Shown here one piece after another: positions 1 through 3,000 of a DNA stretch of 9,825 bases. Position 1 is the first letter of the stretch. Every line of letters begins with the position of its first letter. The position numbers are program-made. Source of the DNA: a virus (Duplodnaviria; Heunggongvirae; Uroviricota; Caudoviricetes); the IMG/VR virus record IMGVR_UViG_2695420874_000001, positions 1-9,825 of that record. One strand, written 5' to 3'.

Positions 1-3000
1 TGGCAGACGCTGGAGCTGGTGTTCACCGCCGGCAGTGCCACGGTTACTCCGAAACTGAATGGAGTGGCTGGCCCGGCATTCCAGGTTATAAAAGACGGTC
101 TGACACTGGGACTGAATGCGCTGACGCTGACGGATGTTACAAAAAATGCAGCGTATGGCGTTGAGATAGAAAGTCTGGTGCTGGAGATAAATGCACCGGC
201 AGCATAATAAAAAAAGAGCCAGCGACTGACCTGAAAGAAGACGCTGGCTAAAAGGCCTTATATGTTTGTAGAGACTTATTTTTCACAGACAGCAATGATG
301 CCTGTCAATATATTATCAATATGCGGATTGTTTCAGTTACAGATGCTTTATTAAGGAAAAAAACAGCCAGCACTGACTTTCGGTGGAGAGGTGCTGGCTC
401 AGAAGGATAGTTGGATTTCACATGATACTTATGCCTGGCGGTATATTTTCTGACAGACAGTGACGGGTGTTGTCAAGATATTGTGTCATTTATAACCTGA
501 ATCAGGGGAGGCCGGAATGTTATCTGGCATTTTTAGCAGAGCCTGAATGCCATAATCACGGCTCCCGGAGTTGGCCGTCAGTGGGTGACACTGGCGGTTT
601 TTTTGTTTTTCTTTACTTTCATTTTCTGTCGGCGGTGACGGAGACATACATCAGATGGAAAAAATCACAACGGGTGTGTCATACACCACGTCAGCGGTGG
701 GGACGGGATACTGGTTACTGCAGCTGCTGGACAAAGTCTCTCCGTCCCAGTGGGTGGCAATCGGTGTGCTGGGGAGTCTGCTGTTTGGCCTGCTGACGTA
801 TCTGACTAACCTTTATTTCAAGATTAAAGAAGATAAGCGTAAGGTGGCGCGGGGAGAGTAGTCGATGAATAAACAATACGAACTGGTTGTAAAATGAATA
901 TTTCTAACTGAAAAAACGTTCCATGAGGTAAGAAAAGGTCACAGGCAATCAATAACAGGACGTGATGAAAGCCCCTTGCATTTGTGCGCTTTCTCTTTAG
1001 ATAGCAGCAGATACTGAAAATCTGAGTTGTCGGGGAGTCAGGGATACAGCTGTGCAAGAGTTGGTCATTGTGATTCCATTGAAATCCTGTATGCCATGAA
1101 GGGCAGGATTTTATGGCTACCTGAGCTTTGGTGATAGTAAGTTGAAAATTCGCATTTTTTGCTGACATGCGTAACGAGAATCCCATAAGCAGGGAGGACT
1201 TAATTCTTCATTAACCCATGCGTTGATATTATGTTTCAGCCGTTGAAGCATCAGCGGTGTTAATGTTGTGGTAATAATATCCAGCGTTTTATGTGAGATC
1301 TTACCGTAAGGGTCTGCAAGAATGCTGCTTGTTGCTTCGTTATTATCTGCCATCAGAAGAAGTAACTCTGATTTAACGTTTTCTGTCATTAGTTGTAAAA
1401 ATCTTCTGCGCAAACTTTCTTTACTGTTCATTTATATGGCTTCATTTGTTGTAATCTGCTGCGTCTCAAGGGATATGTTTATGAGAGCGACCATGAGTGT
1501 TGGATTATATACCTAACATATCAAGGGATTAGAAATCGATAAATCCCCATGAACGAAAAAATAAAATACGGCCTGTCGGCTGCCGTTCTGGCGCTGATTG
1601 GTGCAGGTGCTTCTGCGCCTGAAATCCTCGACCAGTTTCTGGATGAAAAGGAAGGTAACCACACCACGGCATACCGTGATGGTGCGGGGATCTGGACCAT
1701 CTGCCGTGGTGCCATTCTGGTGGATGGTAAGCCTGTTATTCCTGGCATGAAGCTGTCAAAGGAAAAATGCGACCGGGTTAATGCCATCGAACGTGACAAG
1801 GCGCTGGCATGGGTGGAGAAAAACATCCGGGTGCCGCTGACCGAACCCCAGAAAGCGGGGATCGCGTCATTCTGTCCGTACAACATTGGCCCCGGTAAGT
1901 GCTTCCCGTCGACGTTTTATAAACGAATTAATGCAGGCGATCGAAAAGGTGCCTGTGAGGCGATTCGCTGGTGGATTAAGGACGGTGGCAGAGACTGCCG
2001 TATCCGTTCAAATAATTGCTACGGTCAGGTCTCACGGCGTGACCAGGAGAGCGCGCTGGCGTGCTGGGACATCGACAGATAGCAGAATATTTTCCTGAAA
2101 AATGACGTTGGCCAACGCGGGTGGATAACACGAAATCCTGAAAACTGGTAAAACCTAAGTGAATAAAAGTAAAAACCCCGTTTGTTGGCAGCAAGCGGGG
2201 TTTTGTGTTTTCTGACCTTGAGTAAGGCAAGGGAGAAATTATGGGTAGGGAGGTACTTTCCCTGTGAGGAAGTATAAAAGATTCTTTCTGAGGTTGTCCA
2301 TTATGAAAGGCATTGAAGTGGAGACGCCAGCCAGTCTGGATTTAACAAGAGCGGCAGCTTTTGCCATTCGTATTGTGGCCATTGCTGTTCTGGTCTGGGC
2401 AATCCGTTGGTGGTGATATGAACCGTGTTCTGTGCGTGGTTATCATTGTCCTGCTGGTGGCCTGTGGTGCGCTTAGTCTGGGGCTGAATCATTACCGTGA
2501 TCACGCCATCATCTACAAAGAGCAGCGCGATAAAAAAGCCAGTGAGCTGGAGCTGGCGAACGCGACAATTACTGATATGCAGGTACGCCAGCGTGATGTC
2601 GCTGCACTTGATGCCAGATACTCGAGGGAATTAGCCGATGCGAGAGCTGAAAATGAAACTCTGCGTGCTGATGTTGCCGCTGGTCGTAAGCGCCTGCGCA
2701 TCAACGCCAACTGTCCAGGCTCCTTGCGTAAAGCCCCCATCACCTCCGGCGTGGATAATGCAACCGGTCCCCGACTGGCAGAAGCCGCTGAACGGGATTA
2801 TTTCATCCTCAGAGAACGGCTGATGGCAATGCAGAAGCAACTGGAAGGAGCACAGGAATATATCCGTACCCAGTGTATACCGTGATGTTTTGTTATGAAG
2901 GTGTTACTGGTAACGTTAAGGTAATTTAACAAAGAGTCAGTTCCGGACTTTATAGTGTGCTCAGTTCATGGACAAAAACGATTTCTGTGATAAATATTTT

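Follow-up and report, generated by a model that had tools for sequence, protein, structure and literature searches.

The segment upstream of a class II pinholin gene is an already described stretch of Shiga-toxin-type prophages, probably pairing a PasA promoter region with a rightward terminator on the other strand

In lambdoid phages, the question of what controls the lysis genes is tied to the position of the late promoter and of the terminator that Q-modified polymerase has to pass. Here we ask what lies at positions 470–612, directly upstream of the holin gene, in a stretch of 9,825 nt from a member of the Caudoviricetes (IMG/VR record IMGVR_UViG_2695420874_000001, positions 1–9,825; hereafter the window). 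A reading made from the sequence without database searches (the sequence-only reading) had proposed that a plus-strand promoter-like element at 470–496, followed by a strong terminator, forms a pR'/tR' late-control unit, and that the late regulator might be missing or of a different type.

The strong terminator upstream of the holin gene, as seen in the sequence-only reading, is real. A terminator scan identified on the plus strand a stem at 573–599 (11 pairs, six of them G-C; core CCGTCAGTG / CACTGGCGG) with the loop GGTGA and followed by TTTTTGTTTT, ending 56 nt upstream of the holin ATG and representing the first strong plus-strand terminator encountered after the esterase stop codon. Together with its T7GT5 tract (T598–604, G605, T606–610) this Rho-independent terminator spans 573–610. 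Folded alone, 570–612 reached −18.0 kcal/mol (z = −4.57), a stability matched by none of 200 shuffles. Since the opposite strand does not carry a T-run, the terminator is unidirectional. It is conserved at ≥95% identity in 28 phage records and at ≥90% in 699 E. coli genomes, all copies being at least 90% identical, and a T599/C variant among them keeps the pair (G-U or G-C). The phage 434 record OL657226 carries an annotated plus-strand terminator at 45673–45709 that is 98.7% identical to it. A literature search on a terminator before S or essD found nothing specific; from its sequence and hairpin, the element is expected to terminate transcription in vivo. As regards the antitermination previously invoked, a strong intrinsic terminator does lie in the late operon immediately ahead of the lysis genes, and polymerase modified by Q would need to pass it; that it does so we infer.

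The gene downstream of this segment is a class II (P21 S family) pinholin gene at 655–861 on the plus strand (Pfam PF04971, E = 1.9e-32; holin in annotated relatives). Its leader (611–654, plus strand) contains the Shine–Dalgarno motif GGAG at 640–643, which a small CUGUC (626–630)/GACGG (637–641) stem may overlap. With the T-tract ending at 610, the SD at 640–643 and the ATG at 655, the 45 bp formerly given as the distance from the terminator to the holin ribosome-binding site is the distance to the start codon, the binding site itself lying about 30 nt away. The spacing of about 80 bp between promoter-like element and stem was accurate, as 76 nt separate the end of the −10 hexamer from the start of the stem.

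The promoter-like element itself fared less well. Its letters are present where they had been placed, TTGTCA at 470–475 and TATAAC at 491–496 on the plus strand, with 10 of 12 consensus matches and a 15-nt spacer. The last base of TATAAC is a C instead of the highly conserved −7 T, and a TG extension is absent. The near-consensus hexamers with 17 ± 1 nt spacing of a strong sigma-70 promoter are not seen at 470–496, which a standard promoter scan (16–18 nt spacer, T at position 6) left uncalled. Under relaxed rules (at least 5/6 matches per hexamer, spacer 15–19), the window contained six comparable sites versus 3.1 ± 1.7 in 200 dinucleotide shuffles, so that on sequence alone 470–496 is no better than chance, and we consider it unsupported as a promoter. 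TTGTCA at 470–475 is the reverse reading of a perfect minus-strand TTGACA, discussed below. Other plus-strand promoter candidates in the spacer, predicted from their hexamers, are TTCACA-19-TATATT (417–447) and CAGACA-17-GATATT (454–482).

The identity of the upstream gene and the position of Q in related phages bear directly on the proposed late-control unit. It had rightly been noted that the ORF ending at 207 shows no Q features: positions 1–207 (plus strand) are the 3' end, the last 68 codons, of a NanS-p/SASA-family sialate O-acetylesterase gene, with 96–97% DNA identity to H-19B, YYZ-2008 and Stx1a phages, in which it is annotated as yjhS or SASA family carbohydrate esterase. That the regulator is missing is not supported; Q is present upstream in every close relative for which left-flank sequence is available. 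In near-identical phages and prophages (H-19B, YYZ-2008, 434 and strain IAL7255), Q with its own promoter–terminator pair lies 3.7–4.5 kb upstream (Q–holin distance 3.7 kb in phage 434, 4.5 kb in H-19B). Where the prophage is 99.5% identical, 3.84 kb separate the end of Q from the holin gene, and the 3' end of Q carries a promoter-like site and a terminator. The intervening DNA in these relatives comprises tRNAs or stx, genes for small membrane proteins, PasD and the esterase gene. The end of Q is also where pR'/qut/tR' is annotated in 933W and phage 21, and end mapping of the Stx1 phage RNA StxS placed tR' 258 nt below pR' (PMC7547250).

On the pR'/tR' reading, 470–496 would be pR', about 503–606 a short constitutive transcript and 573–610 tR', with Q being loaded at this site for expression of lysis and morphogenesis genes. 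A hexamer pair with a strong terminator 76 nt further on, close in front of the holin gene, does resemble the geometry of lambda 6S RNA or StxS. Moreover, an intrinsic terminator is indeed found a short way downstream of 470–496, promoter and terminator would be spaced at roughly the expected distance, and a strong late-path terminator upstream of the lysis genes is what the window shares with the lambdoid pR'-qut-tR' units (lambda 6S RNA; phages 21 and 82; 933W and Stx1 phage StxS). In contrast to those units, the segment lies away from Q, behind an esterase gene, while the 99.5%-identical prophage, H-19B, YYZ-2008 and 434 all have Q with its own promoter-like site and terminator further upstream. 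It also differs from them in sequence: a blastn comparison (word size 7) of 440–654 with the Q-end regions of H-19B, 434 and 933W returned only T-runs at E ≥ 0.1. A credible sigma-70 promoter is lacking, given the 15-nt spacer and the absent −7 T, and a QBE/qut or pause element appears to be absent; inspection of 476–530 revealed no repeat like the phage 21 QBE, although a cognate Q may recognise another sequence, and inspection of 497–530, including the first ~25 transcribed bases, no −10-like TAnnnT pause element, the nearest match being TATCTG at 521–526. Finally, as described below, plus-strand RNA is already present upstream of the proposed start. We therefore regard a late-control unit at 470–612 as largely refuted by synteny and highly improbable.

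The spacer between esterase and holin genes corresponds instead to a known sRNA locus. In the phage chosen as representative in the 2026 preprint of Zhu, Shabalina and Storz (NC_011356, 96% identical to the window), the esterase gene is followed by PasA, encoded on the other strand, and then by the holin-lysozyme genes. The published PasA coordinates in E2348/69 are minus strand 743499 to 743415. The esterase stop codon aligns with E2348/69 position 743265 and phage 434 position 45306, and anchoring on this stop and on the holin start gives a window-to-E2348/69 offset of 743058. This places the PasA gene at 357–441 on the minus strand (hairpin 365–399, U-run 363–357), with the mapped 5' ends of both PasA and PasC falling at window position 441. 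The published PasA fragment (Fig. S5) and the Northern probe GCCAGCACTGACTTTCGGTGGAGAG are present at 365–405, and the probe, seed region and terminator sequences as well as position and strand all assign the spacer to the PasA/PasC locus. The window copy has a divergent, PasA-2-like 5' part, identical to the H-19B copy; expression and Hfq dependence were demonstrated for the E2348/69 copies.

Downstream of PasA on the same strand, a PasC-type paralogue occupies 206–273 (hairpin 217–249, U-run 215–209), its 5' limit at about 273 being predicted by analogy to the PasA unit, with which it forms a tandem repeat (74% identity). This unit also ends a minor 236-nt PasA species, the minor PasA 3' end at 743264 corresponding to window position 206. 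In E2348/69, minus-strand RNA2 ends from RIL-seq fall at 743266–743297, and in phage 434 a minus-strand terminator is annotated at the same unit (45305–45327).

Alignments of the window with the spacers of E2348/69 PP2, phage 434 and H-19B run from end to end. The spacer is the same DNA as the PasA/PasC locus (Pearl Mizrahi et al. 2021, PMC8550237; Zhu et al. 2026; EcOnc51/52 of Tree et al. 2014), with at least 95% identity except in the variable 5' part of PasA and with the same esterase–sRNA–holin synteny; the published minus-strand ends correspond to window positions 441, 357 and 206. The segment is present in 699 of 5,426 complete E. coli genomes. Unlike the present analysis, the PasA/PasC papers treat the minus-strand sRNAs only, leaving undiscussed the plus-strand terminator, the promoters and the tandem of a PasC-type unit with PasA as found here. 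The phage 434 record OL657226 shows the same three-terminator layout from the esterase to the class II holin gene (minus-strand terminators at 45305–27 and 45456–74), its terminators differing in that they were annotated by prediction and without an assigned function.

The perfect minus-strand TTGACA lies 29 nt upstream of the common PasA/PasC 5' end, within a stretch (444–520) that is nearly invariant across PasA, PasA-2-like and PasC loci, whereas 406–443 is variable. Judged by these motifs, the region is the probable PasA promoter (447–476, minus strand): a −35 TTGACA at 476 to 471, a 17-nt spacer, a −10-like TCAGAA at 453 to 448 and the 5' end at C441, with TGtCAGAAA alternatively readable as an extended −10. 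TCAGAA makes a poor −10. The PasA 5' end may also arise via processing or cleavage of a longer transcript (Zhu et al. 2026 preprint).

Taken together, these results suggest a model, which we consider probable, in which 470–612 comprises two unrelated elements on opposite strands, the PasA promoter region to the left and a rightward terminator overridden by Q to the right. Leftward transcription of PasA would start at 441 and end at 357, in part reading on to about 206, and would be antisense to the untranslated 3' part of the esterase mRNA. In the lysogen, Q-independent rightward transcripts from the accessory block (PasD, esterase) would cross the spacer and stop at 573–610, thereby keeping the pinholin and SAR-endolysin genes silent. 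Upon induction, polymerase modified by Q at the true pR', adjoining Q about 3.8 kb upstream, would ignore tR', the PasD terminator and the terminator at 573–610, so that the lysis genes would be expressed. RNA-seq of an E2348/69 lysogen gave baseMean values of 102 for the esterase versus 3.5 for the holin and 3.2 for the endolysin gene; this drop could alternatively stem from decay of the RNA or from polymerases colliding with the convergent transcription of PasA.

The promoter-like element most likely reflects the PasA promoter on the opposite strand, and the true late promoter sits beside Q about 4 kb upstream, so that 470–612 is an unremarkable and previously described part of Shiga-toxin-type prophages. 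For annotation, this means that the late promoter of this prophage family adjoins Q and not the holin gene, which prevents a mis-call, and that the pre-holin spacer is a PasA/PasC sRNA locus plus a terminator. The terminator probably silences a lethal pinholin/SAR-endolysin cassette while the NanS-p esterase, PasD and PasA are expressed in the lysogen. As the neighbours expressed in the lysogen include, in relatives, Shiga toxin 1 with its own iron-regulated promoter, the arrangement is relevant to the uncoupling of toxin and accessory-gene expression from lysis.

A further question concerns the RNA that crosses the spacer on the plus strand. EPEC RIL-seq reported the heavily Hfq-bound feature 'pasA.E2348C_0689.IGR' (plus strand, 743482–743611), which corresponds to window 424–553. 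In EPEC it was the dominant partner of PasB, an sRNA whose gene lies in another prophage's tail region, with 774 chimeras in three libraries and 24 in reverse order; another 8,024 fragments of the spacer RNA were Hfq-bound, and the PasC locus showed the same pattern with 54 chimeras. The start of the plus-strand RNA we infer; its Hfq-bound fragments begin at window 424, upstream of 470–496. A modest new point is that PasB has, as a major Hfq-bound partner, the RNA predicted to end at the 573–610 terminator.

These data could indicate an independent plus-strand sRNA gene, divergent from PasA and transcribed from a promoter inside the spacer (470–496 or a nearby candidate), yielding a 100–150-nt Hfq-binding RNA that ends at the terminator and acts as a partner or sponge of PasB from the other prophage. 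Besides the chimeras and Hfq-bound fragments at both PasA and PasC loci, this is consistent with the long U-tract of the terminator, a typical Hfq site, with the fold of 497–612 (z = −2.67), and with the complementarity of PasB UGUCUGUC, located in its proposed seed, to GACAGACA at 452–459. An 8-mer match of this kind, however, is expected about 0.5 times by chance, and the PasB–spacer duplex energy was, at coarse resolution, no better than that of shuffled sequence. Moreover, in 97% of chimeras the spacer RNA took the RNA1 position, as a target does and not an sRNA, and where it was RNA2 its ends fell at 472–534, away from the terminator. The fragments begin as far upstream as 424, or in PP5 the esterase stop, consistent with an esterase 3' UTR; the EHEC Hfq-CRAC peak list contains no plus-strand peak adjoining EcOnc51/52, and Rfam families gave no match. 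On balance, we consider a separate plus-strand sRNA gene unlikely. We put still less weight on the idea that plus-strand RNA from the PasA promoter region to the terminator is a regulatory RNA which, with the positionally conserved terminator, forms an RNA-controlled gate; if true, such a gate would let one prophage sense or tune leakage into another's lysis genes or into the PasA antisense pair.

Rfam searches of the whole window at gathering thresholds and of 150–950 at E ≤ 10 returned only chance snoRNA and viral matches, AgvB, AsxR, STnc100 and Esr41 being absent, and a tRNA/tmRNA gene search found none. The multicopy prophage sRNA HnrS (EcOnc10-12) was rejected as the plus-strand unit: its sequence is absent from the window, and its Sakai Sp12 copy is located 3.2 kb away at the DUF3950 gene, in the orientation opposite to that of the late operon. 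Two ORFs overlapping the segment appear spurious, namely a minus-strand 53-aa ORF (486–647; hypothetical in phage 2B8), which overlaps the terminator and holin out of frame, and a plus-strand 109-aa ORF (467–796), which overlaps both in the same way; neither is called in RefSeq.

Directly upstream of the terminator, an imperfect plus-strand hairpin of doubtful significance (506–566) contains a nine-codon mini-ORF at 517–546. The fold of 500–572 (−24.1 kcal/mol, z = −1.64) was equalled in stability by 14 of 200 shuffles. A leader-peptide attenuator of the holin gene, in which translation of the mini-ORF (MLSGIFSRA) would remodel the hairpin and decide terminator formation, might be envisaged from this arrangement and from the strong SD-like GGGGAGG 5 nt before the mini-ORF ATG. 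Inspection revealed a single anti-terminator pairing of 5 bp (ACGGC 559–563/GCCGU 575–579), to be set against an 11-bp terminator of −18 kcal/mol; the SD-like run differs among copies, being altered in H-19B and PP5, and the upstream hairpin is not significant. Such an attenuator is hence very hard to credit.

The comparison also covered other P21-family holin loci, with whose leaders that of the window can be aligned. A plus-strand terminator within 250 nt upstream of the holin gene was found at 28 of 58 loci, and at 22 of 43 clusters after clustering at 90% identity, compared with 24/227 and 13/280 in control bins and 2/58 on the minus strand. These terminators cluster 49–62 nt from the ATG and comprise at least ten different hairpin sequences behind different upstream genes. 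Generality was judged by such enrichment and position statistics; in a MAFFT alignment, positionally equivalent terminators of other genera were not in structural register. That a terminator keeps a fixed spacing from the start codon in about half of the sampled P21-family holin loci is again a modest new point. A pre-holin terminator is not obligatory, since the scan detected none immediately upstream of S in 933W and phage 21.

The overall layout is reminiscent of the lambdoid moron, which Juhala et al. in 2000 (cited in PMC4104026) reportedly described as an accessory gene that is inserted in the late operon, has a promoter of its own and is followed by a terminator. Similarly, the window has an accessory block (PasD, esterase, PasA) downstream of pR' that is closed by a terminator preceding the next essential phage gene. 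It differs in that antisense sRNA genes are also present in the 3' tail of the block, and in that the distance of about 55 nt between terminator and holin ATG is fixed in many unrelated loci, which suggests that the terminator travels with the holin gene and not with the moron.

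The spacer lies between a left-truncated plus-strand gene ending at 207 and a P21-family class II holin of 68 codons at 655-861 (+; Pfam PF04971, E = 1.9e-32), downstream of which follow a phage lysozyme and then an Rz spanin. Window positions 1-894 are 96-97% identical to H-19B, YYZ-2008 and many Stx1a-converting phages, and the aligned gene in these phages, annotated yjhS or SASA-family carbohydrate esterase (NanS-p) in the H-19B and YYZ-2008 records, identifies the gene stopping at 207 as an esterase gene, in agreement with the sequence-only reading, which had seen no obvious Q features in it. 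By alignment, the 447 bp between esterase stop (207) and holin start (655) are the published PasA/PasC small-RNA locus.

In the EPEC strain E2348/69, Pearl Mizrahi et al. (PMC8550237, Table S6) mapped PasA to the minus strand, with its 5' end at 743499, a major 3' end at 743415 (85 nt) and a minor one at 743264 (236 nt), and equated it with EHEC EcOnc51/52. Since the E2348/69 esterase stop (743265) and holin start (743713) correspond to window 207 and 655 and both spacers align with zero net indels, the transferred coordinates place PasA at 441 to 357 (-), with a long form reaching ~206; the published PasA fragment and Northern probe matched at 365-405. The same synteny, esterase-PasA-holin-lysozyme, was described by Zhu, Shabalina and Storz (bioRxiv 2026), whose representative phage, NC_011356, is among the best matches to the window. 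The spacer comprises two tandem minus-strand units of 74% identity (repeat extents 205-356 and 353-512): unit A, at about 206-273 with a PasC-type terminator hairpin at 217-249, and unit B, which is PasA with a divergent 5' part as in H-19B. At the E2348/69 PasC locus there is one unit instead of two, and the right-hand block after it, plus-strand terminator included, is the same; the PasC 5' end, like that of PasA, maps to window 441. In EPEC RIL-seq, an RNA ending at the unit A terminator (743266-743297, window 208-239) takes the sRNA-like RNA2 position in 92 chimeras with an nlpD-adjacent intergenic RNA and in chimeras with the pfkA 5' UTR; in the PasA papers it figures as just the minor long PasA form.

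A plus-strand promoter had been proposed from TTGTCA (470-475) and TATAAC (491-496). Both hexamers are present, but they are spaced by 15 nt and the -10 lacks the conserved final T, a consensus promoter scan made no call at 470-496, and relaxed rules yielded 6 comparable sites in the window, against 3.1 ± 1.7 in dinucleotide shuffles. Read in the opposite direction, the bases of TTGTCA give the minus-strand TTGACA (476 to 471), which is followed by 17 nt, TCAGAA, 6 nt and then C441. Because the block 444-520 is almost invariant across PasA, PasA-2-like and PasC loci while 406-443, the 5' part of the sRNA, varies, we infer that the left end of the proposed unit is the PasA promoter, with a weak -10. 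According to Zhu et al. (bioRxiv 2026), the PasA 5' end may come from cleavage.

The related phages place the late regulator elsewhere. H-19B and YYZ-2008 share the order Q, stx1AB, esterase, spacer, holin, with Q ending ~4.5 kb ahead of the holin, and phage 434, which has the same spacer (98.7% identity over 500-654), carries a Q82-like gene 3.7 kb upstream of the holin and a terminator 50-75 bp past the Q stop. In a near-identical prophage of E. coli IAL7255 (99.5% identity over window 1-3000), Q occupies 5127-5816, with the holin at 9655. The Q end overlaps a promoter-like site, and 60 bp further on stands a G+C-rich hairpin flanked by A and T runs. The only remaining strong plus-strand terminators before that holin are the one studied here and another at 7244-7262, which immediately precedes the esterase, at the place of PasD2 in E2348/69. 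The 933W and phage 21 records annotate pR', a Q-binding or qut element and tR' at the Q end, and in both Sakai Stx phages the pR' transcript StxS ends 258 nt below pR' (Sy et al., PMC7547250). When window 440-654 was compared by sensitive blastn with the sequence around Q in H-19B, 434 and 933W, T-runs were all that matched. With Q kilobases upstream in relatives and this null result, the spacer is, on comparative grounds, not the promoter region of Q; the reading of 470-612 as a pR'/tR' unit must be abandoned, and the regulator suspected to be missing is not missing but would lie left of the window.

The strong terminator just upstream of the holin withstood analysis. An 11-pair stem at 573-599 (+), with loop GGTGA and followed by T7GT5, folds at -18.0 kcal/mol (z = -4.57; 0/200 shuffles as good); its T-tract ends at 610, ahead of the holin Shine-Dalgarno GGAG (640-643) and ATG (655), and in our scan no other strong rightward terminator lies between it and the esterase stop. 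Predicted annotation in the phage 434 record covers this terminator and both leftward ones of units A and B. With the sRNAs already in the literature and a reference phage genome carrying an annotation for the terminator, the proposed unit amounts to a known and ordinary feature that was mislabelled.

In 62 P21-family holin loci from species-representative genomes (58 usable), we also searched the 250 nt ahead of the holin start for terminators, defined as a perfect stem with 7 or more pairs, 4 or more of them G-C, and 5 or more T within 8 nt. A plus-strand terminator preceded the holin in 28 of the 58 loci, compared to 24/227 further-upstream bins, 13/280 downstream bins and 2/58 on the minus strand, and in 22 of 43 clusters (upstream sequences clustered at 90% identity). 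Stem ends fell 49-62 nt from the ATG in 9 clusters and 110-135 nt in 12, with peaks at ~55 and ~118 nt; the window's own value is 56 nt. The terminator seems to travel with the holin, since the hairpins vary in sequence, the genes ahead vary as well (esterase, 350-aa DNA methyltransferase-like and membrane acyltransferase-like, named by reading the sequences), and one E. coli strain carries window 521-654 and the holin behind a truncated DUF1737 gene, with PasA absent. The leader from T-tract to ATG is alignable across genera of diverse Enterobacteriaceae. The arrangement is not universal: by the scan, 933W and phage 21 lack a terminator directly before the holin, although in phage 21 a T-run stands at this distance. 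By eye, a candidate small stem, CUGUC (626-630)/GACGG (637-641), overlaps the Shine-Dalgarno and seems possible in aligned holin leaders of other genera, similar to the translational-control stem-loops that precede lambda S and S21. The E2348/69 PasC locus (1290600-1291600) carries an IS4-like ISEc13 immediately past the T-tract, which parts the terminator from its holin.

RNA-seq baseMean values in E2348/69 are 102 for the esterase, 3.5 for the holin and 3.2 for the endolysin. RIL-seq revealed an abundant plus-strand Hfq-bound spacer RNA with starts at 743482-743611 (window 424-553), and at the PasC locus such starts begin right past the esterase stop; this RNA thus begins upstream of the proposed promoter and fits a 3' untranslated tail of the esterase block. 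In the main alternative, the terminator would mark the 3' end of a plus-strand sRNA in its own right. Among the RIL-seq partners of PasB, an sRNA whose gene lies between the tail genes of a different prophage, the spacer RNA dominates (774 chimeras in three libraries), and UGUCUGUC in the proposed PasB seed is complementary to GACAGACA at 452-459 and could pair with it; unit A repeats part of this motif at 286-292. However, the spacer RNA takes first place in 97% of chimeras, and where it comes second its ends fall at 472-534, away from the terminator. The Hfq peaks listed for EHEC include no counterpart, and the PasB-spacer pairing is no better than chance. A nine-codon mini-ORF, MLSGIFSRA (517-546, +), lies 5 nt past GGGGAGG inside a 506-566 hairpin; it is probably fortuitous, because this Shine-Dalgarno-like run is altered in H-19B and the E2348/69 PasC locus, and a leader-peptide attenuator built on it would have neither a convincing anti-terminator nor a significant fold.

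The most economical model is that the terminator acts as a second tR'-like barrier to which no late promoter belongs. Rightward transcripts of the accessory block that arise without Q in the lysogen would stop at 604-610, and pinholin and SAR endolysin would therefore not be expressed; upon induction, Q-modified polymerase from the Q-proximal pR' would pass this and other terminators.

Among 5,426 complete E. coli genomes, 699 contain window 497-654 (2,850 places, median four per genome), the best copy per record being always at least 90% identical, and 28 phage records contain it as well; among the copies listed it is mostly unannotated.

Similarity to H-19B and YYZ-2008 ends at 894. These phages carry a plus-strand YdfR-family ORF between holin and endolysin, and the window has another insert there (895-1540), with a minus-strand ORF at 1117-1431. 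This ORF hits phrog_1853, a family of unknown function, over profile positions 57-158 of 159, and has no match in Pfam or NCBIfam. A 104-aa ORF at 3351-3665 (+), for which the near-identical prophage carries the annotation PerC-family transcriptional regulator, also matches PHROG transcriptional-activator families and may be a Pch/PerC-like virulence regulator in the late region. Finally, a very strong palindromic hairpin of 15 pairs at 2172-2204 (AAAACCCCG...CGGGGTTTT), flanked by an A-run and a T-run, sits ~90 nt past the endolysin gene and ahead of Rz, and resembles a terminator that works in both directions within the lysis cassette.
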